The notes beneath the pieces are model-generated. The model worked only from the letters and a program-made list of their open reading frames with translations. It did no database searches and was not told the origin of the DNA. Of a stretch of DNA of 64,000 nucleotides, positions 21,305-61,344 are shown in pieces. The stretch comes from Deltaproteobacteria bacterium. GTDB taxonomy: Bacteria > Desulfobacterota > Binatia > Binatales > Binataceae. Location of the stretch: the NCBI GenBank assembly GCA_021799495.1, contig JAJZAI010000011.1, positions 10,127-74,126 of the forward strand. Reading direction: 5' to 3'. The number at the start of each line of letters is the position of its first letter. Position 1 is the first letter of the stretch. A program made the translations under genes and the position numbers.

Positions 21305-21382
21305 TGGTGTCCCCGACGGGATTTGAACCCGTGTTACCGACGTGAAAGGCCGGTGTCCTAGGCCGAGCTAGACGACGGGGAC
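21305..21382 (-). tRNA. tRNA-Glu (anticodon UUC)
   Basis: The reverse complement is GTCCCCGTCGTCTAGCTCGGCCTAGGACACCGGCCTTTCACGTCGGTAACACGGGTTCAAATCCCGTCGGGGACACCA. It has a 7-bp acceptor stem GTCCCCG/CGGGGAC, anticodon loop CTTTCAC, a GGTTCAAAT T-loop and an encoded CCA. It closely resembles E. coli tRNA-Glu. Confidence 0.95.
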
Positions 21383-23872: not shown

Positions 23873-25906
23873 TTGCTGACTCTCGACAAGGTCTCCAAAT
23901 TCTACGGTGGTCGCGCCATTTTCGACGGCGCCAGTTGGGCGATGCCCGACGACGGCCGGGTCGGATTGGTGGGACTCAACGGCGCGGGAAAATCCACGCT
24001 GCTGCGGCTGATCGCGGAACTTATACCGGTTGACGGCGGACGCATCGCGCGCCCGCAACGCACTCGCGTCGGCTATCTCCATCAGGATTCGCCCGAGATG
24101 GGCGGCCGATCGGTAATCGAAGAGACCTTGTCGGCGCTGGCCGAGGCGCGTGCGATCGACCGCCGCCGGCTGGAGCTGGAGGAAATTCTCGCCCGCGAGC
24201 ATTCCGGCCCGATCCACGACGCGGCGCTGAACGAACTCGGAGACGTTCTCAGCGAGCTGGAACGCCAGGACTTTTACAGCGCCGAAAGCCGCGCGACGGC
24301 GGTTCTGTTCGGATTGGGTTTTCGCGAAAGCGACCTCGCTCGCGACGTTGCGGAGTTTTCAGGCGGCGTGCGGATGCGAATCGCGCTGGCGAAACTCCTG
24401 CTGCGCCGGCCCGAATTCCTGATGCTCGACGAGCCGACCAACCATCTTGATATCGAAGCGCGCAACTGGCTCGAAGATTATCTGGAAGATTACGCCGGCG
24501 GCATAATCCTGGTTTCGCACGATCACTATTTTCTCGATCGCGTCACCCGCAAGACGGTCGAAGTCGCGCGCGGCGCGTTGATCGAATACAACGGTAATTA
24601 CTCCGATTACCTCACCGAGCGCGAGCGGCGTTTCGAGCAGGAATTTGCCGCCTACGAGAAGCAGCGCGCCGAAATCGAACATATGGAAGCGTTTATCAGC
24701 CGCTTCCGCTATCAGGCGAGCAAGGCGCGGCTCGTCCAAAGCCGCATCAAACAACTCGAGAAGGTCGAGCGCTTGCAGCCGCCGGCCGGACTCGAAAAAC
24801 CGCCGTCGATCGCGTTTCCCGAATGCGAGCGCGGCGCCCGGCGCGTCGTGGAGCTGCGCGGCGCTGTCAAGCGCTATGGCGAACTGACGGTTTATGGCGG
24901 TGTAAGCCTGGAAATCGAACGCGGTGCCCGGGTCGCGCTGGTCGGTCCCAACGGCGCGGGAAAATCCACGATGATCCGCATGCTCGCGGGAATCGAACCG
25001 CTCGATGACGGCGAGCGAATCGTCGGCGACTGTGTCGAAATCGGCTATTTCGCGCAAAATTTGTCCGAATCGCTCGATTATGAGCGCACGATTTACGACG
25101 AGTTAAGCCGCGACGCGCAAGGGATGACCACCAGCCAGATTCGCGGCTTGCTCGGCGCGATGCTGTTTTCCGGCGACGAGGTCAATAAACGCGCCGGCGT
25201 GCTTTCCGGCGGCGAACGGGCGCGGCTGGCGCTCGCCAAAGTGATCGCCCGGCGCAACAACTGTCTGCTGCTCGACGAGCCGACCAACAATCTTGATATC
25301 GTCGCCAAAGAGACGCTGCTCGAAGCGTTGAAGCGTTTTCCCGGCGCCGTGATAATTGTCAGCCACGACCGCCACATTTTGAACCAGCTTGTCACTGAGG
25401 TGATCGAAGTAGGGCAGGGCCACGCGACCCGGTACCTCGGAAATTACGACGATTATCTGGCGAAGAAGGCCGAGGAAGATGCGCGCGCCGTTGCCCGTCT
25501 GTCGCGTGAAAACGAAAATCGCGCCGGCAGCGTCGCGCCTGACAGCGCATCCGTGGCCGGCGCGGCGCGAAACGGATCGTCAGATGCGGCGAAATCGAGC
25601 GGCGATCCGGCAGCCAACGGCAAACATAACGACAAGCCGCGGAATCATGCCGTGTCCCGCCCAATCGATCGCGAAGGCGAGCGGCGGCGTTCCCGTGGCG
25701 CGCGCCGGCGCGCAGATCTCGAAGCGAAAATCGAAGCCGCGGAAAGCGAGCGGTCGGGCATAGGCGTCGAAATGAACGACCCGAATTTCTATCTCGCACG
25801 GCCTGACGCGAATCAGTTGATTGCGCGCTACGAAAAGCTCGGCAAAGAAATTGAGCGGTTGTACGAAGAACTGATGGGGTTCGAGGCGGCCGAAGACGCC
25901 GGCTGA
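23873..25906 (+). CDS. ABC-F family ATPase (Uup-like, with C-terminal coiled-coil)
   Basis: 677 aa with a TTG start. Two ABC cassettes (GLNGAGKST / GPNGAGKST Walker A, LSGGVRMR / LSGGERAR signatures), no TM domain, and a charged linker plus C-terminal helix. Confidence 0.9.
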   Translation: MLTLDKVSKFYGGRAIFDGASWAMPDDGRVGLVGLNGAGKSTLLRLIAELIPVDGGRIARPQRTRVGYLHQDSPEMGGRSVIEETLSALAEARAIDRRRLELEEILAREHSGPIHDAALNELGDVLSELERQDFYSAESRATAVLFGLGFRESDLARDVAEFSGGVRMRIALAKLLLRRPEFLMLDEPTNHLDIEARNWLEDYLEDYAGGIILVSHDHYFLDRVTRKTVEVARGALIEYNGNYSDYLTERERRFEQEFAAYEKQRAEIEHMEAFISRFRYQASKARLVQSRIKQLEKVERLQPPAGLEKPPSIAFPECERGARRVVELRGAVKRYGELTVYGGVSLEIERGARVALVGPNGAGKSTMIRMLAGIEPLDDGERIVGDCVEIGYFAQNLSESLDYERTIYDELSRDAQGMTTSQIRGLLGAMLFSGDEVNKRAGVLSGGERARLALAKVIARRNNCLLLDEPTNNLDIVAKETLLEALKRFPGAVIIVSHDRHILNQLVTEVIEVGQGHATRYLGNYDDYLAKKAEEDARAVARLSRENENRAGSVAPDSASVAGAARNGSSDAAKSSGDPAANGKHNDKPRNHAVSRPIDREGERRRSRGARRRADLEAKIEAAESERSGIGVEMNDPNFYLARPDANQLIARYEKLGKEIERLYEELMGFEAAEDAG

Positions 25907-31631: not shown

Positions 31632-32474
31632 ATGAAGTTCGGACTGTTTGGCTTCAACATGCGGCCCTGCGTCACGCCCGGCGCGATCGCGCAAATCGCG
31701 CGCGCGGCGGAGGCGGCCGGCTTCGAGAGCATGTGGGGCGGCGAGCATATTGCGCTCGCCGATCCGCAAACGCCCGACTCGCCGCTTTCGCCGCACACCG
31801 AATTCGTCGATTTGATTTCCGCCGCCGCCTTTGCCGGCGCGCATACCCGGACGCTCCGTTTCGTCACCGGCATCCTGCTGATCACCTTGCGCAATCCGGT
31901 CATCCTGGCGAAGCAGGTCGCCTCGCTCGACGCGCTCACCGGCGGACGCTTCACGCTCGGCGTCGGCATCGGCAACCTCGCCTTCGAGTTCGCCGCCGTG
32001 GGCGCGCCCTTCGACTCGAAAGGGCCGCGTGCCGAGGAGGCGGTCGCCGCGATGCGCGCGTTGTGGTCGATGGAGCGCGCGGAATTTCACGGGCGCTGGT
32101 ATTCGTTCGCGGGCGTGCGCGCCGAGCCGCGTCCGGCCGCGGGCGCGCGGATTCCGATCGTATGGGGCGGCAAGTCGGCCTACGCCTTCGCCCGCACCGC
32201 GCGATCCGGCGCCGGATGGTTCGGTTACGCGCTCGACCTGGACGCGACCCGCCGATGCATCGACGGCATCCGCAAGGCGTGCGTGAAAATCGGCCGCCCG
32301 CCCGATGAGATCGAAATCAGCGTCACGCCCAAGGGCGCGCTCGATCGCGATTTGGCGCGGCGCTACGCGGATTTGGGCGTCGCGCGGATAGTGATGCCGC
32401 CGCCCGGCCGCGACGTTGCGGAGGCGCTGCGAACGATCGCCCGCGCCGAGCGCGATCTCATCGGCGGCATCTGA
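31632..32474 (+). CDS. LLM-class (probably F420-dependent) oxidoreductase
   Basis: 280 aa with an MKFGLF...ESMWGGEHIAL N-terminus and GRFTLGVGIG. Confidence 0.8.
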   Translation: MKFGLFGFNMRPCVTPGAIAQIARAAEAAGFESMWGGEHIALADPQTPDSPLSPHTEFVDLISAAAFAGAHTRTLRFVTGILLITLRNPVILAKQVASLDALTGGRFTLGVGIGNLAFEFAAVGAPFDSKGPRAEEAVAAMRALWSMERAEFHGRWYSFAGVRAEPRPAAGARIPIVWGGKSAYAFARTARSGAGWFGYALDLDATRRCIDGIRKACVKIGRPPDEIEISVTPKGALDRDLARRYADLGVARIVMPPPGRDVAEALRTIARAERDLIGGI

Positions 32475-32650
32475 TGCAGCCTCCTGCCGGCTGCACGAGG
32501 AATGCGCTCAGGCCGCGTCCGCATCCGCCTTCAGCGCGAGGAATCGTTGGATCATTTCGCCCGCTCCCCCAAGCCCCCCATGCGGGTAAGGCCTATTTTC
32601 GGGTTGCTGACACAATGCGGGTCGTTGTGATTTACTGCGATAAGACCGCT

Positions 32651-33217
32651 ATGGCCACGCGACGACAAAGGCCCGATGATGAAAAACTTCGGGAACTGAT
32701 TTTGTACCTCGTATCTCTCTCGGCGCGAGACGAGAATTTTGGTGCGGTCAAATTAAACAAGCTGCTCTTCTACGCTGATTTTCTGGCATACCAACGGTTT
32801 GGTCGCGCTATAACGGGTCAAGAATATCAAGCGTTACCGCAAGGCCCGTGTCCACGACGTTTGGTTCCAGTTGTTGAGCGGATGAAGAATGCAGGAGACT
32901 TGGCTGAAGAAGCCGTTCGTCGCTACCGATTCCGCCAAAAAAAGCCAGTTGCGATCAGAACTGCAGATCTCAATAAGTTCAGCCGCCAGGAACTGGATCT
33001 GATCGAGGAAGTGGTAGGGAGATTCTGGAAAATGAATGCGACGCAGATTAGCGACGAATCGCATTTGTTTTTAGGTTGGCAACTTGCCGCACTCGGCGAG
33101 ACAATTCCGTACAGCGTTGTGCTTATCGGAAACCGTAAGCCCACCGATCGAGAAAAGCGCACTGGGCGAGCAATGCAGAAGCTTGCGAGAGAGGCGCTTG
33201 CCGGGAATCACAGATAG
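32651..33217 (+). CDS. Panacea/DUF4065 (SocA-like) domain antitoxin candidate
   Basis: 188 aa from the ATG at 32651 (alternative in-frame ATG at 32615). Carries the signature GAVKLNKLLFYADFLAYQRFGRAITGQEYQALPQGP. The gene lies in a low-G+C islet. Confidence 0.75.
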   Translation: MATRRQRPDDEKLRELILYLVSLSARDENFGAVKLNKLLFYADFLAYQRFGRAITGQEYQALPQGPCPRRLVPVVERMKNAGDLAEEAVRRYRFRQKKPVAIRTADLNKFSRQELDLIEEVVGRFWKMNATQISDESHLFLGWQLAALGETIPYSVVLIGNRKPTDREKRTGRAMQKLAREALAGNHR

Positions 33218-33220
33218 GTC

Positions 33221-33496
33221 TTGCGACAGATCGTTAAAACGCATCCGTTCGAGGTGCAGTTACGAGACCTCATTAAGGACGGTGTCAAGGCAGCCGACGA
33301 ATTCATTGAAGGATTGGAATTCGCCTTGGCGCGAAAGCCGGAAATCGGCTCTCGCGTGACTACGGACGATCCGCCCATCTGGTTTGTGCCAGTCGTCCAT
33401 GTTGACCGCGTGACGCCTATGACGGTGTATTATACGTTCGACGATGAATGCGTTTACCTTCTGTCTATCCAGCTAGCTATAGGGACGGAAAATTAA
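33221..33496 (+). CDS. hypothetical 91-aa protein, putative toxin partner of the Panacea-domain gene
   Basis: TTG start 3 nt after the upstream stop, and the same low G+C. The C-terminus PMTVYYTFDDECVYLLSI resembles the terminal strands of RelE/ParE-fold toxins by pattern only. Confidence 0.5.
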   Translation: MRQIVKTHPFEVQLRDLIKDGVKAADEFIEGLEFALARKPEIGSRVTTDDPPIWFVPVVHVDRVTPMTVYYTFDDECVYLLSIQLAIGTEN

Positions 33497-33524
33497 ACTA
33501 ATAAGCTCGGAGCCAACCGCGCGG

Positions 33525-34559
33525 TTACGGGCGGGGGGAGGGGGTGATTTCCAGCGCGTGCTTCTCTACGCCCCGGATCACCGTCAGCTCCGACGGCTTG
33601 CCGACCCGATCGCCCGTCAACATCCGCTGCAAATCGTCGATGCCCGCCACCGGCGCGCCGCCGAACGCGACGATCACGTCGTTGCGCATCACCCCCGCGC
33701 GTTCCGCCGGACTGCCCGCTTCGACCGACGCGGCCATCACGCCGCTATGTGTCGGCAGCGCATGAAACCGCACCAGCCGCCGCGGCAGCGGCACGTCCTG
33801 GCCGGCCATCCCGATCCACGCCCGTTCGACCCGGCCGTGACGCATCAGTTGCGCCGCGACCAGCTTGGCCGTGTTGACCGCGATCGCGAAGCAGAGTCCC
33901 TGCGCGGGCAGGATCGTCGCCGTGTTGACGCCGATCACCTCGGCGCGCGAGCTGACCAGCGGACCGCCCGAGTTGCCGGGGTTCAAGGCCGCGTCGGTCT
34001 GCACGACGTTGTCGATCAGCCGGCCCGATTGCGAGCGCAGCGAGCGGCCGAGCGCGCTCACCACTCCGGCCGTCACGGAATATTGAAAGCCGAAGGGATT
34101 GCCGATCGCGATCGCAAGCTGGCCGACCCGGATCCGCTGCGAGTCGCCGAGTTTGGCGGCGGTCAAATCACTGCCGCCGATCCGGATTACCGCGAGGTCG
34201 GTGTCGGGATCGTCGCCGACCGGCTCGGCGCGCATCCGGCGCCCGTCGTTGAGCGTCACGTCGATCCGGCCGGCGCCGTGCACCACGTGGCTGTTGGTCA
34301 GAACGTAGCCGTCGGGCGTGAAGATAAAGCCGGACCCCGTCGCGTGCGGCCCGGAGCGCGCGGCGCGGGCGTCGCCCGCTGGGGCGTTGCGGCGCGAAAC
34401 CTCGATATAGACGACCGCCGGGCTGATTACCTCGGCGGCGTGAATCACCGCGCTCGAATAAGCGTCGAACAATTCGGCGTCCTGCGGATTTTCGATCGCG
34501 CCCGCGGCGCCTTGCGCCCCGCTTGACGCGGACAGGGCGCGGACTTTCGGTTTCGTCAT
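33525..34559 (-). CDS. S1C (HtrA/DegP-like) serine protease with PDZ domain
   Basis: 344 aa with catalytic His (TNSHVV), Asp (DLAVI) and Ser (GNSGGPL), plus a C-terminal PDZ-like region. No obvious N-terminal signal or TM segment. Confidence 0.88.
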   Translation of the reverse strand: MTKPKVRALSASSGAQGAAGAIENPQDAELFDAYSSAVIHAAEVISPAVVYIEVSRRNAPAGDARAARSGPHATGSGFIFTPDGYVLTNSHVVHGAGRIDVTLNDGRRMRAEPVGDDPDTDLAVIRIGGSDLTAAKLGDSQRIRVGQLAIAIGNPFGFQYSVTAGVVSALGRSLRSQSGRLIDNVVQTDAALNPGNSGGPLVSSRAEVIGVNTATILPAQGLCFAIAVNTAKLVAAQLMRHGRVERAWIGMAGQDVPLPRRLVRFHALPTHSGVMAASVEAGSPAERAGVMRNDVIVAFGGAPVAGIDDLQRMLTGDRVGKPSELTVIRGVEKHALEITPSPRP

Positions 34560-35153: not shown

Positions 35154-35300
35154 CGGCAAGCGAACCTCGGCGTCAAATTTTAGGCCTTGACCGCGCGCGC
35201 CGCCATCGGCAGCCTTGCCGAAGCGCGAGCGCATCGGCTACCAACTGCATACGACGCGGAATCTCCGGCCGGCGGCAAGCGGCTCAAGGAAGGACTCGCG

Positions 35301-36413
35301 ATGGCTGTTCAGGCGAAGCTCAATCCACCTTTTCGCGCGGAACATATCGGCAGTTTGCTGCGGCCTGCGGAGCTGGTCGCGGCCTTCAGGGAACGCGCGC
35401 GCGGCAATCTTTCCGAAGCCGCATATCATCAGCTCGAAGACCGGCTGATCCTCGACGCCATCCGGATGCAGGAAGAGGTTGGCCTGCAATCGATCAGCGA
35501 CGGCGAGTATCGGCGCAGCTCGTGGGCGTACGGATTTGTCGAGGCGCTCGACGGTTTCGTCAACCGGCCGTCGCCGTGGCCGTTTCATGATGACGCGGGA
35601 CAGGAATATCCGATCGAAACCTGCCACGCGGCGGGCCGATTGCGCCGCCGTCGGGGAATCGCGACGCCGGAGTTTGAATTCGTCCGCGCGCATACCGCAC
35701 GCACCCCGAAGGTCACGATTCCCTCGCCCAGCTTCATGCATTTCTTTCAGGGCGGACGCGCCGCCGATCCGGCGGCCTATCCCGACCCCGAGGAGTTCTG
35801 GGACGACCTGCTGCGCATCTATGAGAAAGAGATCGCGGCGCTCGGCAAAATCGGCGCGAGTTGGCTCCAGATCGACGAAGTGCCGCAGGCGATGCTCTGC
35901 GATCCGAAAATCCGCGAGCAGGTGCGCGCCTTCGGCGAGGACCCCGAGCGCCTGACGCAAAAATATATCGACGCGGTGAACCGGATTCTGAAGGCGCGTC
36001 CGGCCGGAATGACGGTCGGGATGCATATGTGCCGGGGCAATTTCCGCTCGCGATGGCTGGCGGCGGGCGGCTACGACGCGGTGGCAGAGCGGCTATTCAA
36101 CGAGGTCGAGGTTGACGGATTCTTCCTCGAATACGATTCCGCGCGCGCGGGCGGCTTCGAGCCGCTGCGCTTCATGCCGCGCCATAAGTTCGCGGTGTTG
36201 GGAATAATCAGCACGAAGACGCCAGTGCTTGAGGATCGCGATTCGCTCCGCCGGCGCGTGGACGAGGCGGCGCGCTTCATGCCGTTCGAGCGGCTCGCGA
36301 TCAGTCCCCAGTGCGGTTTCGCCAGCACCGCCGGCGGCAATCAGATTACGCCGGAGGATCAGCGCGCCAAGCTGCGTCTGGTCGTCGAAACCGCCGCCGC
36401 GATCTGGGGATGA
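35301..36413 (+). CDS. cobalamin-independent methionine synthase II (MetE C-terminal-like) family protein
   Basis: 370 aa from the ATG at 35301 (AAGGAAGGA upstream). Has a HIGSLLRP N-terminus, HMCRGN, and a QCGFAS C-terminal Zn-ligand context. Confidence 0.8.
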   Translation: MAVQAKLNPPFRAEHIGSLLRPAELVAAFRERARGNLSEAAYHQLEDRLILDAIRMQEEVGLQSISDGEYRRSSWAYGFVEALDGFVNRPSPWPFHDDAGQEYPIETCHAAGRLRRRRGIATPEFEFVRAHTARTPKVTIPSPSFMHFFQGGRAADPAAYPDPEEFWDDLLRIYEKEIAALGKIGASWLQIDEVPQAMLCDPKIREQVRAFGEDPERLTQKYIDAVNRILKARPAGMTVGMHMCRGNFRSRWLAAGGYDAVAERLFNEVEVDGFFLEYDSARAGGFEPLRFMPRHKFAVLGIISTKTPVLEDRDSLRRRVDEAARFMPFERLAISPQCGFASTAGGNQITPEDQRAKLRLVVETAAAIWG

Positions 36414-36499
36414 TGCGCGTGACGGCGGGTGCGCGAAGTTCCGGTTGGTGGCGATTGGATCGGCGCGGTGCGCGAAGTGGCGCCGCGGGCCGCGAAATG

Positions 36500-36964
36500 T
36501 CACGCGCGTGATGCGGCGGTCGGCGGCACGCTCATCGGCGTGTACGAATCCAATTCGGCGTCGCCGATAATGACGCCGCCGGCGCTTTCGAGCCATGCGT
36601 GGGCCGCGAGTCTGCCGTCCTCGGATTTGCGTACGCCGATTTTAAGCTCGGAAAGATAGCCATAGCGCGCGAGCATCGTTTGGGTCGCGAGCGCCCTGAC
36701 AAGGCAATTCGAGCCGCGCGGCGTCACCACGCCGACCGCTCGGACCGCCCATGCGATTCGTTCGGGCGGCGGCGCGACCGTCCGGCGCGGCGGCGGCCCG
36801 CACCATGCACGCGATCGGCGTGCGGGTAATTGCACGCGCTGGCGCATCCGGTCGAAGCCGAGCACACGTAAGCCAATCGTGGTGCGAATCATCGAGAGCG
36901 CGGCCGAAACCACCAATTCCCGGTCCCGCGCTGGCAACTTCAAAAATTTACCGATTCGGCTCAT
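36500..36964 (-). CDS. transglutaminase-fold cysteine protease, lasso-peptide B2-type (PF13471-like)
   Basis: 154 aa. NCLVRALATQTMLARYGY...LKIGVRK...LAAHAWLESAGGVIIGD gives the Cys/His/Asp arrangement of McjB-C/B2 leader peptidases. Its start overlaps the upstream PqqD gene by 17 nt. Confidence 0.8.
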   Translation of the reverse strand: MSRIGKFLKLPARDRELVVSAALSMIRTTIGLRVLGFDRMRQRVQLPARRSRAWCGPPPRRTVAPPPERIAWAVRAVGVVTPRGSNCLVRALATQTMLARYGYLSELKIGVRKSEDGRLAAHAWLESAGGVIIGDAELDSYTPMSVPPTAASRA

Positions 36965-37286
36965 CGGCGACGCTAATCAGCCCGCGTGTGTTTAATTCGT
37001 CCAGAAGGCGCATCAAATCGATCTGGCACGCATCGCGCTCCACCTCGAATTGCGCGAGCATCGCGGCGAGCAATTCGCGCACCGGAACGGGTTTTTCAAG
37101 CATCCGCCAAATCGCCGCGCCGACCGGATTCAGGCCGTGGTAAACGCCGGTTTTCAAATTGAGAATCGCGGCTTCGCCTTCGAGGTCGCAGGAAAAATGA
37201 TGCGAGGCCGCGCAGACCGTCGAATCAAGCGTTATTTGAGCGGGAGCTGACTCCACAACCGAATCACCGTTGAGCAGGCTCGTCAA
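36948..37286 (-). CDS. PqqD-family RiPP recognition element, lasso-peptide B1-type
   Basis: 112 aa (TTG start; alternative GTG 30 nt downstream). Shows the PqqD pattern LEGEAAILNLKTGVYHGLNPVGAAIWRMLEKPVPVRELLAAMLAQFEVERDACQIDLMRLLDELNTRGLI. Confidence 0.8.
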   Translation of the reverse strand: MTSLLNGDSVVESAPAQITLDSTVCAASHHFSCDLEGEAAILNLKTGVYHGLNPVGAAIWRMLEKPVPVRELLAAMLAQFEVERDACQIDLMRLLDELNTRGLISVADEPNR

Positions 37287-37380
37287 TGCCGCGTCAAGAT
37301 GCGCGCTTGCTCATCATATGACGCTTTGCTTTCGCGAGCAACGAAGGCGCTTCGTATGTGCTCGTACGCCGCCGTCTGGA

Positions 37381-39807
37381 CTAATTCACGGCCATCGCCG
37401 GCCCGGTCGCCTCCGCTTGTTCATAACGCATGATGAACCGCGGGCGGCGCCACGCGATATAGGCTGGAAGTATCAGCACCCCGGCGATCATGTTCGTGCC
37501 CATCAGAAAAATCAGCAGCACGCTCATTTCGTTGTGAAACATCAGCGGCGAGAAGACCCACGGCACGATCCCGCCGATCATCACGGCGAAGGTGCTGAAG
37601 ACCGACGCGCCGGTATGCCTGAGCGCGGTCGTGATTGCGTTCTCGAGCGTCGCGCCGCCCATCACTTCGTCGCGGATTCGGGCGACGGTGTAGATTCCGT
37701 AATCGACGCCCAGGCCGATACCGAGCGAAATTACCGGTATAGTGTCGATCGTCAGTCCGATGCCGCGCGCATTCATATAAACGAACGCGCCGAAATTCGC
37801 CATCACGCACGAAACGATGAACAGCGTTCCCGCCGTCATCGATCTGAAAGTGAAGGCGCAGCAGAGGAAAATCACGAGCAGCACGAACGTCAGGTTGACG
37901 ATATCCAGGCGGTACAGGACGTCGTTGGCCGCCAAATACAGGCCCGCGAGGCCGCCGAAATAGCTGATCCTGACTTTGCTGATGGACGGATCGGTCGCGA
38001 CGCGCAGTGCGATGAATTTCTTGATGTCGTCGCGAACCCGGTTAAGCCGGTCATAAGTATGGTCCGGCAGCAGCACGCGGATGCACGAGTTGGTCATCTT
38101 GGGCGAGTAGGCGAAGAAGCGCTCAATTTCGCCGGGCGCGGTTCCGGCGAAAAACATGTACCAGAGGTTGCCGCCCAATTCGGTCTGCCCCGGTACGGCG
38201 TTATATTTCGGAAAGCCGTTGTGAAACATCATATTCAACGGCTTGATCGCGATGCTCGCGAACGAGACGACCGCGACCGCGTCGCCGCGGCTGACGAGAT
38301 ACGCGCCCATGTCGTCGGCCATGCGCATCACGGCCGGACCCAAGCTCGATTGCGGATCGGGATAGTCCGGCGTCGAGAGCACCACCCATCCTTCGTCGGT
38401 CGGGAAATATTTGCCGATTTCGCCAATATCCTTGTTGACCTTCGAGTCGGGCTTGTAGAGCGGCGTGCCCTCGGTCGCGTAGCCGATACGCGCGCGTTGC
38501 CCCGAGACGACGCCAAACACGATGAAGGCCGCGCCGCCCACCAGCAGCGCGGTGCGAATCGCGCCCGGCGTCACCGGCACATGCACGAGCCAATTGGTGA
38601 ACTTCGCGAAGACCGATTGGCGTTCGCTCCGTTCGAGTTTTACGAGCCAACTGCGTTCGCGGATGCGCGGGCGCGGAAGATAGCTCATGAAAATCGGCTG
38701 GAAGACGAAAACCATCGTCAGGCTTCCCGCAAGCCACATCGCGCCGCCGAAACCGATCTCCTTGAGGACGGGTATGCCGCCCAGCGAGATGAAAATGATG
38801 CCCGCGATGTCAGCCAGAATCGACAGCAACCCCGGCGGCAGCATCACGTCGGTCGTGGTGGCGCAGGCGAGCAGTTTGTCGTCGAGCCGATCGAGCTCGT
38901 CGTAATAGCGGCCCTGCCACTGGATGCCGTGGCTCAAATCTCGCGCGGTCAAAATGAACGGGATGACCAGCATCACGGGGTCGAAGTTGTAACGCATCAG
39001 GCTGACGAACCCGAGGCCCCAGATGGCCGAGAACGATCCGGTCAGAATCGGCGCCCACCAACTGCTGCGCTCGCCGATGCTCAGGTAAAGAATCAGGAGC
39101 ATCAGCGCGATCGCGGCGACGAAGATTACCTTGATCTCGGTCAGGTAGTAGTAGCCCCATCCGGAAATGACCGGCTGGCCGGCCGTATAGATGGCCGTGT
39201 TGGAATCCTGGTATTTCCGGACCAGCGCCTGAATCGCGTCGAAAAGCGCTTTGTAGTCGAGGCCGTTTTCGTTGAAAGTCGCGGTGATCAGCGCACCTTT
39301 ATTGTCGTAGGTGATGAGGCCCGCGACCGGCTCGCGATGCGTCATCACGTTGTGCCGCAGTTCGTCGAGCCCCTTCTGGGTCGTCGGCACGTTCGGATAC
39401 ATGTAGCAGGTGGCGATCAGGGCGCCCGGCACGGCATGAGTGAAGGCGACGCGGTACGACGCGAGCGAAAAAATTTCGTTGTGGTCCACGCCCGGAAGCG
39501 TGTTGGCCTCGCGCGTGATGTCCTGGATTTTCTTGAGCGTCGCGTAATTGAAGATATCCCCATGCTTTACGCGCAGCATCAGGTAGAGCGACTGCGCGCC
39601 GCCGTACTGGTTCTGGAATTTGCGATAGAGGAGAGTGTCCTCGTGATCGGCCGGAAAGAAGTTTTCGAAGCGCGTGGCGATTTTTACGTTGGCCGCCCAA
39701 TAGCCCATGAAGATCGTGATCGCGATCAAAAGCAGGCCGATTGGCGCGCGAAACTGCAGGATATACCTGCCCAGCCCCCAAGGCTCCTGGGTTCTCGACG
39801 TGGCCAT
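37381..39807 (-). CDS. MMPL/RND-superfamily exporter
   Basis: 808 aa with two blocks of about 6 TM helices, each preceded by a large soluble loop. GGAG lies 12 nt upstream of the ATG. The antisense 846-aa track ORF is Arg/His/Asp-rich junk. Confidence 0.85.
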   Translation of the reverse strand: MATSRTQEPWGLGRYILQFRAPIGLLLIAITIFMGYWAANVKIATRFENFFPADHEDTLLYRKFQNQYGGAQSLYLMLRVKHGDIFNYATLKKIQDITREANTLPGVDHNEIFSLASYRVAFTHAVPGALIATCYMYPNVPTTQKGLDELRHNVMTHREPVAGLITYDNKGALITATFNENGLDYKALFDAIQALVRKYQDSNTAIYTAGQPVISGWGYYYLTEIKVIFVAAIALMLLILYLSIGERSSWWAPILTGSFSAIWGLGFVSLMRYNFDPVMLVIPFILTARDLSHGIQWQGRYYDELDRLDDKLLACATTTDVMLPPGLLSILADIAGIIFISLGGIPVLKEIGFGGAMWLAGSLTMVFVFQPIFMSYLPRPRIRERSWLVKLERSERQSVFAKFTNWLVHVPVTPGAIRTALLVGGAAFIVFGVVSGQRARIGYATEGTPLYKPDSKVNKDIGEIGKYFPTDEGWVVLSTPDYPDPQSSLGPAVMRMADDMGAYLVSRGDAVAVVSFASIAIKPLNMMFHNGFPKYNAVPGQTELGGNLWYMFFAGTAPGEIERFFAYSPKMTNSCIRVLLPDHTYDRLNRVRDDIKKFIALRVATDPSISKVRISYFGGLAGLYLAANDVLYRLDIVNLTFVLLVIFLCCAFTFRSMTAGTLFIVSCVMANFGAFVYMNARGIGLTIDTIPVISLGIGLGVDYGIYTVARIRDEVMGGATLENAITTALRHTGASVFSTFAVMIGGIVPWVFSPLMFHNEMSVLLIFLMGTNMIAGVLILPAYIAWRRPRFIMRYEQAEATGPAMAVN

Positions 39808-40201
39808 TAATCTTTTACTCCGCTTATTCCCGGGTGTAGGGCGGGCGCAAGCTCTCCCCCGATTGCCCCAATCGCCCTGCCCCCACCGGGAGCAGACTGC
39901 CTAACATCCCCGGCTCACCTTAGCAAGACTCAGCGTGCAAATCATGGTCTGTTTTGTGCCGCCCGCCGGAGTTCTGCATCCGCCTGGGAAAGCGCCGATG
40001 GCGTCCTCGAAGCGCTAAACGAACCTTTCGCTTTGCGTTTTAGCTTCGCATGGCCTAACTAACGGTCGAAGCGCGATCGCGCGGATGACGGGCAAGCGGG
40101 GCGAAACGCGCGATCGATCGAATTCCGTCTGGTTCTCCGCCACGCGATCCGTGCGGCGGACAAGCCCGATTGCCCAGCTTCCAAGTTTGAAAGGGTCAGT
40201 G

Positions 40202-41533
40202 ATGCTGTTGAAACGCTGCCTGTTCGCGATGTTGTCTGTCGTGGCGTGTCTGAACTCTCTGCCCGCCGCCGCGCAAAACGCCGCCAGCGGGACGGCATCG
40301 CGGCCGCCGGCCGCCAACGACTCGCCGCCGGCCGGAACGACCATCACGATGCAAAACTGGCGGCAATTCCAGCAATTCATGCCCGACGGGATGATTACGC
40401 TCTTTGAAGGTCAATATTTCTGGAAGATGCCGGACGACGTCGCGATGGAGATCGGTCCCACCGCAATCAATCCGCTGCCGAAAACCTATCTGGACGCGAC
40501 CGAAAAATATGCCGGCCAGACAAGGATCGAAACTCTGCCGGACGGCGGTCTGACGGTGAGCGGCTATCAGGGCGGAATTCCCTTTCCGACGCCTGCGGCG
40601 CCGCACAAAGGATGGAAAATTCTGGCCGATTTCTGGTACCGCTACATGCCTCATCTGGTCGTCAATACGCCCAACAATCTTGGCTTCTTTTGCACGCTCG
40701 ATTCATATCGGAACGTGAGCTGCACGAAAGGCCTGTGGGTTTACCGGCAACTGTCGTACAACACCGATCCGGGGACGCCGGCGACGGTTCCCGGCGGCGA
40801 AGGGAAGTTCTATACGACCTGGTTCATGGTCGAGGAGCCGGAGCAGGCGAAATATACCGCAACGCTCACGATCGGATACGCGGACCTTGCAAAGCCCGAG
40901 GAGATTTACACGTTCACGCCCGCGTTGCGCCGCGCGATGCCGCTCTCGACGGCCGCGCGCTGCGCGTCGTCCGGTTCGGACACCACTCCTGACGATGCGC
41001 GGTTCGGCTTCGACGGCAATATTCCGGAATTTTCCGCGCACCTGCTGGGCGAGAAGAAAATCCTCGCGCAGATGAACGTGGGCTCGGCCGGCGCGAATTT
41101 TCCGCAGGATTACGACATGCCGCTGGGATGGTCGAAGGCGTCGTGGGGCAAATGGGAATTGCGCGGCGTTTACGTGCTGGACGTGCGCAAAATTCCCGCT
41201 TTGGCCAGTGGTTATTGCTACGGCAAGCGTATCATGTACCTGGACAAACAGTTTCTGGGCGCGTTGTGGGAGGATCTCTACGATTCGAAGATGCAGCTCT
41301 GGAAGGTCGCGCTGCTGCAGCCGATCGTAATCACAGTGCCGCGGCTCGGCCCGCAGAATTCCTCCGGCGCGCAATTCTCGCATTACTGGGATTTGCAAAA
41401 CCATCACGCCACCTTCAGCGGGCCCAACGACGGCCACGGCTACAACATCCTGATCAACGAGGAAGCTCCCAGCGAATACGGCGATATCGAGAAGTACACC
41501 ACGCCGGGCGGCCTCAACCAGGTCATGCGTTAG
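40202..41533 (+). CDS. DUF1329 domain-containing secreted protein
   Basis: 443 aa from the ATG at 40202. Signal peptide MLLKRCLFAMLSVVACLNSLPAAAQ, then TMQNWRQFQQFMPDGM...GGIPFPTP typical of DUF1329. Divergent from the exporter. Confidence 0.8.
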   Translation: MLLKRCLFAMLSVVACLNSLPAAAQNAASGTASRPPAANDSPPAGTTITMQNWRQFQQFMPDGMITLFEGQYFWKMPDDVAMEIGPTAINPLPKTYLDATEKYAGQTRIETLPDGGLTVSGYQGGIPFPTPAAPHKGWKILADFWYRYMPHLVVNTPNNLGFFCTLDSYRNVSCTKGLWVYRQLSYNTDPGTPATVPGGEGKFYTTWFMVEEPEQAKYTATLTIGYADLAKPEEIYTFTPALRRAMPLSTAARCASSGSDTTPDDARFGFDGNIPEFSAHLLGEKKILAQMNVGSAGANFPQDYDMPLGWSKASWGKWELRGVYVLDVRKIPALASGYCYGKRIMYLDKQFLGALWEDLYDSKMQLWKVALLQPIVITVPRLGPQNSSGAQFSHYWDLQNHHATFSGPNDGHGYNILINEEAPSEYGDIEKYTTPGGLNQVMR

Positions 41534-45822: not shown

Positions 45823-46069
45823 CCGCCGCTCGGACTGAGGCGGCGTCGATGACGGGTTTGATCGCGATCGCCAAAAAAATGCCGCTGTAATTCTGACAGC
45901 GACAATCTTCGATACCTCAATTTTCCAACCGCGCGTCCGACCGGGCGGGCGGTTCCACCAGTCAAGTTCCGCCGAGCTTGGCTATTCCGGTCATCTTGAT
46001 TGTCTGGCGATGCCGCCGCTGCCGATCGGCGCGGCCGGAAGCGGATTTCCCGCGCGAAAAACGGATGGC

Positions 46070-46654
46070 ATGGCGTTTGGATATTCCAGTCAAACGCGCA
46101 TGGACATCGCCGCTTTGAATTTCGCCGAAGAGGCCCGGGAACCACACGGGCCGAACGATCTCGAATGGCGTCTGCTGTGGACCAAGGCGGGCGAGGAGCG
46201 CGCCGTGCGCGACCGTCTTGCGCTGGCCGCCGTGGAAGTGGTCTTGCCGATGCTCAAAGTGCGGGTGCGGCGCTGGGGCCGGATGGTTGAATCGACCGCG
46301 CCGCTTTTTCCCTGTTACCTGTTCGTGCGCATGAGCCTCGGCCGCGATCTGGCGTGCGTGCGCTACGCCCGCGGCGTGCGCGATCTCGTGCGCTTCGGCG
46401 CCGAGCCCGCGCTGGCGCCGGATTCGATGGTCGCGGAGCTTAAGCGCCGCTGCGCCGGCGGCCCGCTCGAGTTGCCGCGGCGCATGCTTCACGCCGGCGA
46501 ACGCGTGCGCGTGATCGAAGGGCCGCTCCTGGGATTGGAAGGCGTTTTCGACCGTTATCTGTCCGGCGCCGAACGCGTGGGCCTGTTGATGTCGGCGATC
46601 GGCGCCGCGACGCGGGTCGTGATGCCGGCGAAGATGGTCGCGGCGGCGGGCTGA
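46070..46654 (+). CDS. RfaH-like NusG-paralog transcription antiterminator
   Basis: NGN and KOW domains. WRLLWTKAGEE, PLFPCYLFV, ARGVRDLVRFGAEPALAPDSMV and GERVRVIEGPLLGLEGVF parallel E. coli RfaH (WYLLYCKRGQ, PLFPNYLFV, TRGVSHFVRFGASPAIVPSAVI, GDKVIITEGAFEGFQAIF). The start is uncertain (ATGs at 46010, 46070 and 46100). Confidence 0.8.
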   Translation: MAFGYSSQTRMDIAALNFAEEAREPHGPNDLEWRLLWTKAGEERAVRDRLALAAVEVVLPMLKVRVRRWGRMVESTAPLFPCYLFVRMSLGRDLACVRYARGVRDLVRFGAEPALAPDSMVAELKRRCAGGPLELPRRMLHAGERVRVIEGPLLGLEGVFDRYLSGAERVGLLMSAIGAATRVVMPAKMVAAAG

Positions 46655-46676
46655 AGCGCCGGCGCCGGGCGCGCGC

Positions 46677-46702
46677 CTTTCGGCCGCTTTGCGGCGCGAA
46701 AG
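46677..46702 (+). promoter_or_regulatory. GC-rich hairpin between the rfaH-like gene and the ops-like site
   Basis: CTTTCGGCCGC-TTT-GCGGC(G)CGAAAG forms an 11-bp stem with one bulge and has no following T-tract. Confidence 0.35.
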
Positions 46703-46762
46703 CCGCCGCCGTTCAGAAATGCGTTTTTATCGATCGCGCGCGCCGCAAGCCGCAGTGGGAAC

Positions 46763-46774
46763 GGCGGTAGCCTG
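46763..46774 (+). promoter_or_regulatory. ops-like element GGCGGTAGCCTG
   Basis: Matches every specified position of the enterobacterial ops consensus GGCGGTAGnnTG. It is on the non-template strand, 108 nt after the rfaH-like stop and 24 nt before the first ATG of the polysaccharide operon. Confidence 0.5.
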
Positions 46775-46798
46775 CCCGCATCGTCCGGGAATCCAAAA

Positions 46799-47203
46799 AT
46801 GAAAGCGAAATTCATCCATAATGCGCGCGCGCGCCGCGGCCTCGCGGTTTTTATCTTCGCGGTCCTCGCGTTCGCGCCGCGGCCGGCGGCGGCGCAGTTG
46901 ATTTGCGCCGGCGATTTGCCGCCGTACGGCGACGTGATCGTCGCCACCGGAACCTCGTCGATTTGCGGCGGCGCGTGCCGCGCCCGCCAGTTCGCATCGG
47001 TCCACGGCGACGTCATGATTATCTGCGCGCAACAGCCGATACCGCCGAATTATTCCCTGCAAAGCCTTACCACCAGTCCGTCCTGCCGATGCCTCGGCGA
47101 CGCGGATAACGCCTATGTGATCCGCGCCGATCCGGCCGCGCAATATCCGCGCTCGGCGACCTCCGGGGCCGGACAGGATCAACCATTTCAGATGGGCGAG
47201 TGA
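46799..47203 (+). CDS. small secreted Cys-rich hypothetical protein
   Basis: 134 aa with a signal peptide (GLAVFIFAVLAFAPRPAAAQ). The mature part has 7 Cys (LICAGD, SSICGGAC, IICAQQ, PSCRC). First ORF of the polysaccharide operon. Confidence 0.6.
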   Translation: MKAKFIHNARARRGLAVFIFAVLAFAPRPAAAQLICAGDLPPYGDVIVATGTSSICGGACRARQFASVHGDVMIICAQQPIPPNYSLQSLTTSPSCRCLGDADNAYVIRADPAAQYPRSATSGAGQDQPFQMGE

Positions 47204-47266
47204 GCGCCGCGCGGTGACGGGACTTTCCCGGCCCTCCGGCGCGCGCCTCGCGGAGACAGGCGAAAA

Positions 47267-49930
47267 ATGAGCATCGATCGAACAACCCGCGGCCGCCGCG
47301 CTCCGCTGCTATGGATGGTGGGCGTTGGCCTGATGATCGCGCTCGGCGCGGCGCCCGCGGCCGGGCAGGGCGTCGCGGCGAGTCCCGCGAGCGTGGCGCA
47401 GGCCGCCCAGCAGCTTGGCATTTCGCCGCAGCAGGCCGGGCAAATCGAAAGCCAGGCCGCGCAGGGCGGACTCAGCGGCGTGCAGTTCCAGCAGGCCTGC
47501 GCCACTGCCGCCGCCAAGCATCTGGGCCCCGGCGAAATTCAGGCGATGGGCGCCGCGATCGGCCTGTCCGCCGGTCAAATCGGCAAGCTGCAACAATGCG
47601 CGCAGGGCGGCGCGGGCGCCGCCGCGGCCACGCCGTCGGCGCCCGCGGGCGCCGCGCTGCAACCCCCGCCGGGGCAGTCGCAGCCGGCGTCGCTGATTGA
47701 AGATCGGTTTCATCAGCTGGCCACCCCCTATCAGTTCCTGTCCGGACCGCGCCTCTCGGCCCTGAAGCAATTCGGCTATGCGCTCTTTTCGTCGCCGGTC
47801 TCGACTTTCGCTCCGGTCGCCGACGTGCCGATCGGCGGCGACTATGTGCTCGGTCCCGGCGACGGCCTGAACGTGCTGGTGTGGGGCCGGATCAACCGCA
47901 CCATCGCGCTCCAGGTTCAGCGCGACGGCGACGTCCTGATGCCGGAAATCGGGCCGCTCGGCGTCGCCGGACTTACCTTCGACCAGGCCAAGCAGATGAT
48001 CGAGCGCCGCGCCGATCAGATCACCGGCGTGCATGTCGCGGTCACGATGGGGCAAATCCGCACGATCGAAGTTTTCGTCGTCGGCAAGGTCAATCATCCC
48101 GGCCTCTATCTGATCAGCGCGCTCTCGCACGTCTCGAACGCGCTGGTCGCGGCCGGGGGCGTCGGCAAGGTGGGCAGCCTGCGCAAGATCGAGTTGCGCC
48201 GCGACGGCCGCACGCTCGAAGTGATCGATCTTTACGATCTGCTGCTGCACGGCGACGCCTCCGCCGACGTCCGCCTCGAGTCGCGCGACGTGCTGTTCGT
48301 GCCGGTGATCGGGCCGGTGGTCGGAATCGCCGGCGACGTGAAAAATCCGGCGATCTACGAGCTCAGAGGTCCGCAGAGCCTCGCCGGCGCGCTGCGGATG
48401 GCGGGCGGGGTGAGCGCCTTCGGCTACGGCCAGCGGGTTCAGGTCGAACGGATCCAGGACCATGAACGGCGCGTCGCGCTCGATCTCGACCTCGGCGATC
48501 CGCGGGCGCGCGCGGCCCGGGTCGCGGACGGCGACCTGATCAAGGTCTTCCCGGTGTTGCCGGGCGAACGGAATATCGTCCGGCTGAGCGGCAACGTCAG
48601 CCGCCCCGGTCCGTACCAGTGGTATCCGGGGATGGAAGTCGCCGATCTGGTCCGGGAAGGGCAGGGCGTCGGCGATCATACCTTCTTCGGCTACGCGCTG
48701 TTGCGCCGCGTGACCGGCGCCACGCGCAAAACCGAATTCGTTCCGGTCGATCTCGGCGGCGCGCTGCGCGGCGACCCGCGCGCCAACCTGCTTGTGCGTC
48801 CCGGCGACGCGCTCACGATTTACAGCGAAAGCGAGCTGCACGAAACGCCGACCATCGTGGTGCGCGGCGAAGTCCGCAAACCCGGCGTCTATCCGCTGAC
48901 CGATTCGATGCGGGTCAGCGATCTGATCTACGCGGCGGGCGGATTGCGCGACGACGCGTACCGCCAGCAGGCCGAGATCGCGCGCACGCGGCTGGTCAAC
49001 GGCGCGCGCGCCGGCTTCAGCTATATTTCCGTCGATTTGCGCGGGGCGCTCGCGGGCGGACCCGGCGATTTGACGCTGGCGCGCGGCGACGAGCTCTTCG
49101 TCGCGCAGGCCTCCGGCTGGCATCAGCCGTACGAGGTGACGATCGACGGCGAGGTCGCCCGTCCCGGCCCCTACGTGATCCGCGGCGGCGAGCGGCTCGC
49201 GTCTTTGATCGAACGCGCCGGCGGACTCCGTCCCGACGCCTATCTGCCCGCCACCGTGTTCGTGCGCCAGTCGGTGCGGCAGGTCGAACAGGAGCGCCTT
49301 GACCAGAGCCGAGCGCGCCTCAAAGAGGAAATCGCGCGGCTCGGCCTCACTCCGCCCGCGCCCGGGCAGGGGCCGAACGCCAACAACGCCGCCGCGCTGG
49401 CCGCGATGCAACAGGCGCTCGCCAGCGCCGACAGCAGCCAGGCCGTCGGCCGCATCGTGATGCGCCTCACGACCCTGCAGGCCTTGTCCGGCGCGCCCGA
49501 CAATCTGCCGCTCGAAAATCGCGACCATATCGTGATTCCGCGGATGCCGTCGTCGGTCAATGTTCTGGGCCAGGTCTACAATCCGACCGCGATCGTCTAT
49601 CAGCCGGGCCTGACCGTCCGCGACTATCTGGCGAAAGCCGGCGGGCCGACCGACGGCGCCGACAAGGACCATATCTTCGTGATCGCCGCCGACGGCGCCG
49701 TGCTCACCGACGAAGGGATCAAGGAGCGCCGCACCAACGCGCTCTTTCCGCTGCTGCCGGCGATCGGCGGCGGCCTGATGGGCGCGCGGCTCGGTCCGGG
49801 CGACACGATCTATGTGCCCGAGCAGCTCGTCTACGTAAGCGGCCTGCAATACGCGACCGACATCACCCAGATTATCGCGAACAGCGCGATGGCGCTGGCG
49901 GTGATCGGAATTCTTGGCACGAGTATCTGA
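47267..49930 (+). CDS. polysaccharide export (OPX/Wza-like) protein with multiple SLBB domains
   Basis: 887 aa. Signal peptide, Poly_export motif (YVLGPGDGLNVLVWGR...DGDVLMPEIGPLGVAGLTFDQAK), several repeated SLBB-like units, and a C-terminal hydrophobic helix. Confidence 0.85.
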   Translation: MSIDRTTRGRRAPLLWMVGVGLMIALGAAPAAGQGVAASPASVAQAAQQLGISPQQAGQIESQAAQGGLSGVQFQQACATAAAKHLGPGEIQAMGAAIGLSAGQIGKLQQCAQGGAGAAAATPSAPAGAALQPPPGQSQPASLIEDRFHQLATPYQFLSGPRLSALKQFGYALFSSPVSTFAPVADVPIGGDYVLGPGDGLNVLVWGRINRTIALQVQRDGDVLMPEIGPLGVAGLTFDQAKQMIERRADQITGVHVAVTMGQIRTIEVFVVGKVNHPGLYLISALSHVSNALVAAGGVGKVGSLRKIELRRDGRTLEVIDLYDLLLHGDASADVRLESRDVLFVPVIGPVVGIAGDVKNPAIYELRGPQSLAGALRMAGGVSAFGYGQRVQVERIQDHERRVALDLDLGDPRARAARVADGDLIKVFPVLPGERNIVRLSGNVSRPGPYQWYPGMEVADLVREGQGVGDHTFFGYALLRRVTGATRKTEFVPVDLGGALRGDPRANLLVRPGDALTIYSESELHETPTIVVRGEVRKPGVYPLTDSMRVSDLIYAAGGLRDDAYRQQAEIARTRLVNGARAGFSYISVDLRGALAGGPGDLTLARGDELFVAQASGWHQPYEVTIDGEVARPGPYVIRGGERLASLIERAGGLRPDAYLPATVFVRQSVRQVEQERLDQSRARLKEEIARLGLTPPAPGQGPNANNAAALAAMQQALASADSSQAVGRIVMRLTTLQALSGAPDNLPLENRDHIVIPRMPSSVNVLGQVYNPTAIVYQPGLTVRDYLAKAGGPTDGADKDHIFVIAADGAVLTDEGIKERRTNALFPLLPAIGGGLMGARLGPGDTIYVPEQLVYVSGLQYATDITQIIANSAMALAVIGILGTSI

Positions 49931-49940
49931 GCGTCCGGCG

Positions 49941-50606
49941 ATGGGTTTGCGAAGCGTGGCGATAATCGCGGCGTGCGCGGCGCTCGCCGGCGCTCCGGCG
50001 CCGCTGGCGGCGCAGGCGCGGCCGGCTCCGGCGGCGCGTCTCGACCTGCGCGCGATGTTCGCCGCGGTGGGCCGGATGTACGCGATCGATCCGGACCTGC
50101 TGGCCGCGATCGCCGCGGCGGAATCGGGCGGACGCGCGGACGCGATCTCGCCCAAGGGCGCCGAGGGCCTGATGCAGTTGATGCCGGCGGCCGCGCGCCG
50201 CTATCGCGTGGACGATCCTTTCGATCCGGTCGAAAGCGCGCTCGGCGCGGCTCGGATGCTCGACGATTTGCGCCGGCATGGCGAGGCGGCGCGCGCGCTG
50301 CCGGATTTGCTCGCCGCCTACAACGCGGGCGCGGGCGCGGTCGATCGTTACCACGGCATTCCGCCCTATCCGGAGACCGAACGCTATGTCCGCGTGGTAA
50401 TCGAGCGTTTTCTGCTGAGCGCGCCCGTGGCCGGAAATTGGAGCGCGGCGGATCTGCCGCCGGGGCCGGTTTTCCGCCCGTTGCGCGGCGCGGCCCGCAT
50501 CGGCGCGCCGGCGCCACGAGCGGCCGGCGACGACGATCTGCTGATGCAGCTCGGGCGTATCCGCCGGGCGCGCGCGCGTGCGCGGCGCGATCGGAGCGCG
50601 GAGTGA
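49941..50606 (+). CDS. lytic transglycosylase (SLT domain) protein
   Basis: 221 aa from the ATG at 49941. Signal peptide plus the SLT motif AESGGRADAISPKGAEGLMQLMP...AYNAG. Confidence 0.85.
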   Translation: MGLRSVAIIAACAALAGAPAPLAAQARPAPAARLDLRAMFAAVGRMYAIDPDLLAAIAAAESGGRADAISPKGAEGLMQLMPAAARRYRVDDPFDPVESALGAARMLDDLRRHGEAARALPDLLAAYNAGAGAVDRYHGIPPYPETERYVRVVIERFLLSAPVAGNWSAADLPPGPVFRPLRGAARIGAPAPRAAGDDDLLMQLGRIRRARARARRDRSAE

Positions 50607-52300: not shown

Positions 52301-52349
52301 CGCGGAGACGCCGAATCGCGCCGGCGCCGGGCGCGCGAACAACCGCTGG

Positions 52350-53327: not shown

Positions 53328-53358
53328 CGACGCCGCTTGCTCGCGAAGGCGCCGGCTG

Positions 53359-58312: not shown

Positions 58313-58314
58313 CG

Positions 58315-59013: not shown

Positions 59014-59058
59014 GCGCAGCGGCGCTTCGACTCGCGCGCGGCTGCGTTCCGCCTGCCA

Positions 59059-60120: not shown

Positions 60121-60186
60121 AGTCCGGCGGCGAACCAGGTCCGTCCCGGCAAGCGGCGCGGCTCCGGCGCCGATTCTGGAATCATC

Positions 60187-61302: not shown

Positions 61303-61344
61303 CGCCGGGCGTCCGAAGCGGCGCGCGCCGGAGACGATTGCATC

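Follow-up and report, generated by a model that had tools for sequence, protein, structure and literature searches.

A B1/B2 gene pair beside an MMPL transporter gene

The 64,000-nucleotide stretch analyzed here (contig JAJZAI010000011.1, positions 10,127 to 74,126, from a bacterium of the Binataceae, Binatia; hereafter the window) carries a pair of genes of the lasso peptide type, B1 and B2, on the minus strand downstream of a transporter gene. The transporter gene (37381–39807, minus strand) encodes an 808-aa protein of the MMPL/HAE3-type resistance-nodulation-division (RND) family (PF03176). It is followed after 94 nt by B1 (36948–37286, minus strand), a PqqD-family recognition element for peptides that are ribosomally synthesized and then modified post-translationally (RiPP recognition element, RRE) of 112 aa, counted from a predicted TTG start. 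B2 (36500–36964, minus strand), which encodes a lasso leader peptidase of 154 aa, begins with an ATG 17 nt within the 3′ end of B1, so that the two genes overlap. On one side, the three genes are bordered by a convergent MetE-like gene (35187–36413, plus strand), and on the other side, the MMPL gene adjoins a divergent DUF1329 gene (40085–41533, plus strand).

Each of the three proteins matches a Pfam profile. The transporter exceeds the Pfam cut-off for PF03176 (4.6e-10), and its best NCBIfam match is TIGR00921 (HAE3; 1.4e-30), with a score of 106 bits that is far under the cut-off of 351.9. B1 matches PF05402 (PqqD) with 63.9 bits (1.7e-17; cut-off 23.4) over the whole model (positions 1–67 of 67). 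Its best NCBIfam match, NF033536 (lasso_PqqD_Bac), reaches 60.8 bits, under the cut-off of 80; the B1 protein of a full lasso cluster in a relative (L087 in the census of loci described below) likewise stays under that cut-off with 69.5 bits. B1 is ∼56% identical to the B1 of another full cluster (L005). B2 matches both PF13471 (Transglut_core3; 6.1e-26, 91.1 bits, cut-off 26) and NF033537 (lasso_biosyn_B2; 97.7 bits, cut-off 33). In an alignment of the window B2 with 37 homologues, Cys87 (in NCLVRAL) and His122 (in AHAWLE) are invariant, and position 135, an Asp in the window, is Asp or Glu in 37 of the 38 sequences. Asp135 is presumably the catalytic acid, a placement that follows the spacing in McjB and not a structure. 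Thus, what had been predicted from the DNA letters alone (hereafter the original prediction) holds for the lengths, gap and overlap of the three frames, which are exactly as claimed, for the gene identities, as the profiles PF03176, PF05402 and PF13471 were all positive, for the Cys/His/Asp layout of B2, which survives proper alignment, and for the two flanking genes, which profile searches confirmed.

An AlphaFold2 model of B2 built from the alignment has a pLDDT of 77. When the model was compared with the PDB by Foldseek, only weak matches were obtained (E > 0.3), the best of which are transglutaminase-fold Cys enzymes (PeiW/PeiP, TglA, transglutaminase 2 and factor XIIIa), and a sequence-profile search of the PDB found no solved B2 structure. 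The modeled fold is consistent with the assignment to a transglutaminase-type family and adds little to it. Sequences identical or close to B2 were found in metagenomes of soil and peat, and its named relatives are metagenome-assembled genomes of Candidatus Binataceae.

Lasso genes absent from the window

Compared with a complete lasso cluster, the window holds B1 and B2 and lacks a cyclase and a precursor. With the genes of a related full cluster as queries, tblastn found no match in the 64 kb to the cyclase, to a 337-aa protein or to NTP_transf_5. No ABC exporter was found in the window either, the sole ABC match (23873–25906) being a soluble ABC-F type protein. This locus thus has none of three further genes of paeninodin-like clusters, those for the HprK-like kinase, the NTP transferase and the MsbA-like ABC exporter. 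A precursor was defined by a YxxPxL...T leader and a core that starts with G, A, S or C and has D or E at positions 7–9. It was searched for in six-frame translations of the window and of related loci with a regular expression, with a relaxed form of it (W or F for Y) and with a hidden Markov model of 16 canonical precursors. These searches recover precursors of known type in many other lasso loci, and in the window, they returned only non-significant matches (E > 6). One of these, STYEAPSLL in the spacer between the MMPL gene and B1 (E = 6.7), was rejected as a precursor: it overlaps promoter-like DNA and shows no conservation at the peptide level. An all-versus-all comparison of small open reading frames (ORFs) was too noisy in this high-GC DNA to find a hidden gene, and it exposed a PGPGW-domain gene as a marker of the flank. 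The tblastn and profile searches thus uphold the earlier statement that the window has no cyclase, precursor or attached ABC exporter. Because neither a cyclase nor a precursor is found in the window, any substrate of the pair must be encoded elsewhere in the genome.

Full lasso operons beside the orthologous MMPL gene

The census of relatives took in 76 genome loci and 80 metagenome loci, plus additional contig look-ups. At least 15 related loci show the gene order MMPL, B1, B2, lasso cyclase, a 337-aa P-loop protein, NTP_transf_5 and an MsbA-like ABC exporter, followed by a convergent PGPGW gene. Full operons next to the orthologous MMPL gene are present at L005/L014, L012, L013, L015 with L018, L016, L017, L019, L020 and L035, and more full-operon loci are L087–L090, L095–L101, L133 and L156. 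For instance, L005 encodes an 808-aa MMPL protein 81% identical to that of the window and a B2 53% identical to the window B2, followed by a 646-aa protein of the Asn-synthase type, a 338-aa protein with only faint ScmC/HprK-like matches, NTP_transf_5 and an ABC exporter; the 337-aa proteins of the full clusters as a group likewise give only weak matches to ScmC, HprK and P-loop families. The cyclase of L087 matches NF033535 (lasso peptide isopeptide bond-forming cyclase) with 1.3e-125, under the cut-off of the model; its neighbor matches PF14907 (NTP_transf_5) with 1.6e-53, and its exporter is MsbA/HepA-like. Past the ABC gene, L087 continues with PGPGW and MetE (both on the opposite strand), HtrA and DUF1329, which is the downstream flank of the truncated locus L004 described below. 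The window differs from this flank in having neither PGPGW nor the DUF1329 paralogue.

Most of the MMPL-linked full clusters have no recognizable precursor with a YxxP or WxxP leader within ∼10 kb. At L005, L012, L013, L016, L017, L019, L087–L090, L095–L101 and L156, there is almost no intergenic room, and no precursor was seen within that distance. L035 is the only MMPL-linked full cluster with a recognizable precursor (12397–12579; ...YQTPTITDYGDVTRLTQ/AKGTSVD...), which the precursor searches recover. Since most full clusters have no recognizable precursor in cis, precursors encoded in trans may be usual in the lasso-linked clade. Binatia genomes also hold several further lasso-type loci with cyclases.

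A second kind of module without a cyclase is conserved in ∼10 other Binatia genomes (L025–L027, L029, L030, L032, L041, L049, L058, L093 and L094; for example, L093 1740–8461). It consists of a NadE-like gene (CN_hydrolase and NAD_synthase domains, 738 aa), a gene for a 257-aa secreted protein, PqqD, B2, an ABC exporter and a gene for an OmpA-domain protein. Its B2 proteins are as little as 55% identical to one another, and neither a lasso cyclase nor a canonical precursor was found within 10 kb of it.

Deletion history of the locus

In the window, only 86 bp (36414–36499) separate the stop codon of B2 from that of the convergent MetE-like gene, and it is here that relatives hold the genes for the cyclase, the 337-aa protein, NTP_transf_5, the ABC exporter and PGPGW. 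Five loci (L001, L004, L011, L091 and L092) have the 3′ end of PGPGW within ∼100 bp after B2, and in L004, L011 and L091, the order is B2 followed by PGPGW and MetE on the opposite strand; in full clusters, the 3′ end of the ABC gene stands in that position. Loci with such a B1–B2 stub thus lack a block of ∼6.1 kb that starts with the cyclase and includes the ABC exporter, and ∼360 bp that hold PGPGW are additionally missing from the window and L002. The sequence just past the B2 stop is common to all four stub lineages (the window, L004, L011 and L091) and unlike that of full clusters, which argues for a single ancestral deletion, with the divergence among the four coming later. A short CACGCGC repeat flanks the second, smaller deletion. 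Over 10.5 kb, the window and L001 are 99.9% identical, yet L001 keeps the 95-aa PGPGW-domain gene (L001 10552–10911); the presence of this gene in L001 and its absence from the window and L002 are a population-level polymorphism.

The direction of change can be read from a neighbor-joining tree of MMPL proteins. In this tree, the lasso-linked genes group in a single clade in which L035 branches near the base, and MMPL genes without lasso neighbors fall outside it. Within the clade, the four stub lineages form a monophyletic group that lies among the full clusters and has the full-cluster loci L087/L018/L012/L089 as its sister group. The stub is not a misassembly, since assemblies produced independently (JGI, Logan, ENA and NCBI; L001–L004, L011, L091 and L092) show it.

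Two other loci have degraded independently of the window clade. L021 keeps B1, B2, NTP_transf_5 and the ABC gene, and its cyclase and 337-aa genes have been replaced; the segment L021 12654–15418 contains a gene for a transposase of the insertion sequence (IS) family IS630 (360 aa), split IS110-family ORFs and unrelated genes for secreted proteins. L022 (the same as L098) has lost PqqD and keeps B2 alone. L132 was considered as a further MMPL-adjacent stub and excluded, as its B1 and B2 genes lie 8 kb away. A history of one acquisition of a lasso operon followed by at least three independent degradations accounts for these loci, and the deletion history is very probable. The genes missing from the window are explained by the ∼6.1-kb deletion and not by a new pathway design.

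Selective constraint on the remaining pair

The four stub lineages have diverged to dS 0.15–0.6 with both reading frames intact. No frameshift or stop was found in B2 in any of the four, which differ there by one in-frame codon indel, and the only one-base difference lies upstream of the PqqD domain. Within the stub clade, the ratio of nonsynonymous to synonymous substitution rates (dN/dS, Nei–Gojobori) is 0.17–0.23 for PqqD and 0.24–0.37 for B2, with binomial p values for a ratio below 1 from 1e-3 to 6e-8; these values are pairwise and not phylogenetically independent. In full clusters, the same genes give 0.11–0.37 (PqqD) and 0.12–0.36 (B2). The 17-nt overlap of B1 and B2 and the promoter-like element described below are also kept in the stubs. 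Intact frames together with dN/dS values like those of full clusters are not the signature of pseudogenes, and the stub is, on balance, likely to be functional still. That the stub has stayed under purifying selection after the cyclase was lost is a hint that B1/B2 pairs can act on precursors in trans.

The neighboring MMPL gene

The MMPL gene is 78–96% identical across loci, and its dN/dS (0.06–0.07) is far below that of B1, B2 or any other lasso gene. There are no lasso genes next to at least 20 MMPL homologues (69–79% identity), for each of which at least 1.8 kb of downstream sequence was available. The MMPL–B1–B2 adjacency is found as well in full clusters, which have an ABC exporter of their own. 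The adjacency is ancestral synteny, and the MMPL gene is not part of the lasso module.

The spacer between the MMPL gene and B1 contains a predicted sigma-70-like promoter element, TTGCTC-N17-TATGAT (37313–37341, minus strand; −35 at 37336–37341 and −10 at 37313–37318). As TTGnnn-N17-TATnnn, with TTG and TAT invariant and the spacing fixed, it is found in 12 of 12 loci, full and stub, whereas the remainder of the spacer is poorly conserved. The scanner used for consensus promoters missed this element, whose −35 matches the consensus at three of six positions. From its conservation, we infer that the element is the lasso genes' own promoter; read-through transcription from the MMPL gene into B1 and B2 is possible.

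The MMPL gene has a conserved upstream region of its own. About 110 nt of non-coding sequence before its ATG (the gene starts at 39807) are conserved in all lasso-linked loci and comprise a predicted 5′ leader hairpin (39828–39892, minus strand) and an adjoining conserved box (39895–39927, minus strand). The leader folds into a long hairpin (UCCCGG...GGGCAGGGC...GCCCGCCC...CCGGGA) whose apical motif is GGGG(G)A, and three of its base pairs are changed on both sides among the lasso-linked loci. Divergent MMPL homologues (L102, L104, L107, L108, L122 and L125) have other stem sequences with an analogous fold and the GGGG(G)A motif, with z-scores down to −3.1; these are folds of single sequences, as RNAalifold on the MAFFT alignment was unusable because the stems were misaligned. 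The hairpin, which has no match in Rfam, may be a previously undescribed cis-regulatory leader of this HAE3 transporter in Binatia.

For HAE3 pumps that occur with DUF1329 proteins, the reported link is to hydrophobic small molecules (monoterpenes, for example) and not to peptides (PMC6394551). The AmeABCD-type HAE3 RND system of Castellaniella defragrans has DUF1302 and DUF1329 partners (PMC6394551), and the window transporter similarly adjoins a DUF1329 (LolA-like) gene; the Binataceae MMPL gene also carries the conserved structured leader.

Origin and function of the B1/B2 pair

The B1/B2 pair is most probably the surviving 5′ end of a lasso operon with paeninodin-like gene content and is probably still working. 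An ancestor within Candidatus Binataceae would have gained the operon immediately downstream of a conserved MMPL/HAE3 gene. In the lineage of the window, one deletion of ∼6.1 kb then took out the genes from the cyclase to the ABC exporter and left B2 ∼100 bp from the convergent PGPGW gene, and a second deletion of ∼360 bp took PGPGW in the window's own population. In split-B lasso systems, the RRE presents the leader to the peptidase, and the leader is cleaved (PMC13381572, PMC10368454). By family membership, B1 would bind the leader motif and present the leader to B2, which would cleave at the junction of leader and core. The substrate may come from another lasso locus, or it may be a peptide that stays linear. 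That the pair acts on a precursor encoded elsewhere, one of the two possibilities raised in the original prediction, is viable and would be its most likely mode of action.

Paeninodin-like clusters consist of A, C, split B1 and B2, an HprK-like kinase, an NTP transferase plus an MsbA-like ABC exporter (PMC13381572). The full clusters of sister Binataceae match this gene set, with the 337-aa protein as a weak HprK/ScmC-like counterpart, and the window's B1 and B2 are ordinary representatives of the families of lasso RREs and lasso leader peptidases. The known clusters are in Bacillota, whereas the host here belongs to Binatia; the full Binataceae clusters mostly have no recognizable precursor in cis, and the window retains B1 and B2 only, having no precursor, cyclase, tailoring enzyme or exporter. 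The locus thus belongs, in truncated form, to a known kind of cluster; what stays of modest interest is the conservation of the remnant after the cyclase was lost. The LPP clusters of Bacillota, which encode linear relatives of phosphorylated lasso peptides, offer a likeness: they derive from the lasso toolkit, have no macrolactam cyclase and use an RRE to give the leader to a peptidase (PMC13381572). However, their peptidase is a SpI-type signal peptidase and not B2, and they keep kinase, NTP transferase, exporter and cis precursors, none of which the window has (PMC13381572). Pseudomycoidin is likewise made by a lasso pathway that departs from the canonical A–B–C set (PMC6993621). It is the inverse case, a lasso peptide without leader or leader peptidase, whereas the window has the leader-processing pair without a cyclase (PMC6993621).

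Several observations weigh against a working remnant of a lasso operon, and some of them would fit a dead relic, that is, a non-functional leftover whose frames are intact only because little time has passed since the deletion. The locus is still eroding, as PGPGW is deleted in the window and present in the nearly identical L001; the B2-only L022 and the IS-disrupted L021 stand among related loci, the IS630 and IS110 elements of the latter marking erosion; and MMPL lineages without any lasso genes exist. B2 has the highest dN/dS of the neighborhood and is its fastest-evolving gene (79–81% identity between the window and L004 or L011, with DUF1329, MetE and MMPL at 92–96% in the same comparison), and the L004 stub (P0004) has Ala at position 135 instead of the conserved Asp. 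The dN/dS estimates are subject to the pairwise dependence noted above, and no partner cyclase or precursor was found in the window, which is the part of the genome that was searched. A consensus scan called no promoter and no more terminators than in shuffled sequence. For the exact deletion breakpoints relative to L087 and L089, blastn-short gave chance matches only, the nearest full clusters being too diverged. A dead relic is nonetheless considered unlikely, although it deserves weight: the four lineages that share the junction keep open frames at the divergence given above, their dN/dS values lie significantly under 1 and cannot be told apart from those of full clusters, and the promoter-like element and the 17-nt overlap are retained. 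An assembly artefact, in which a chimeric contig would hide a cyclase and other genes that are really present, has a negligible probability, as assemblies made independently, from different samples and with different pipelines, share this junction and the architecture is unchanged across stub sequences with ∼9–10% DNA divergence.

The other possibility raised in the original prediction was that an RRE and a leader peptidase had been recruited, in one operon, to a different product exported by the adjacent MMPL/RND pump. The genes do share a strand, the gap between MMPL and B1 is 94 nt with no terminator detected in it, and the MMPL–B1–B2 adjacency is present in every lasso-bearing locus of the clade, including the three independent degradations. 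This adjacency is older than the loss of the cyclase, however, and coexists with a dedicated ABC exporter in the full clusters at the same spot. MMPL homologues without lasso genes and the lasso genes' own promoter-like element leave the recruitment without support, and the MMPL gene has its own conserved 5′ leader and is under ∼fourfold stronger constraint; HAE3 pumps with DUF1329 partners are, moreover, tied to hydrophobic small molecules (PMC6394551). A functional operon of B1 and B2 with the MMPL gene is not upheld, and recruitment to an RND-exported product is very improbable. A pathway in which B1 and B2 form a stand-alone leader-dependent protease that yields a linear peptide, with no cyclase anywhere in the genome, would be in keeping with purifying selection on the stub and with the NadE-linked module of other Binatia genomes, and the LPPs provide a precedent (PMC13381572). 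Such a pathway is improbable all the same: no precursor was found in the window, LPPs use a SpI-like peptidase and keep a kinase, transferase and exporter that are all absent here, and Binatia lasso loci with cyclases could be the real partners. In a broader form, B1/B2 pairs in Binatia would be free-standing, selectively maintained modules that act on distant precursors and need no cyclase nearby, or perhaps anywhere. Selection on the stub, the NadE-linked module and the full clusters that mostly have no cis precursor together allow this reading, which is doubtful at present. The truncated but probably working lasso operon is the preferred explanation.

Other features of the window

A segment of 1.05 kb (32474–33527) is specific to the window; L004 and L011 hold the second DUF1329 paralogue at this place. 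The segment contains a SocA/Panacea-domain antitoxin-like gene (32474–33217; PF13274, 2.4e-16) and a gene for a 91-aa partner (33221–33496) that has no Pfam match. The region 46000–62000 has a GC content of 0.66–0.69 and a strongly negative AT skew, compared with a GC content of 0.60–0.64 around the locus. A tRNA-Glu (TTC) gene (21305–21382, minus strand) is the sole Rfam/ARAGORN match in the window, and Rfam searches of the window and of 36300–40300 found nothing besides it.

Implications for lasso biosynthesis in Binatia

A literature search found no report of lasso peptides in Binatia, and the present comparison documents lasso clusters in this uncultured phylum. Frequent gain and loss have been reported for such clusters in Bacilli (PMC13381572), and one acquisition with at least three degradations in Binatia fits that pattern. 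The locus also holds a caution for genome mining, as what looks like a design of RRE, peptidase and RND pump is a truncated lasso operon beside an unrelated conserved gene. If B1/B2 pairs do serve precursors in trans, this would bear on the prediction of RiPP products from metagenome bins that are fragmentary. If the pairs are free-standing modules, B2 peptidases might have substrates other than lasso precursors, and cluster-based mining would systematically misread the RiPP capacity of Binatia.

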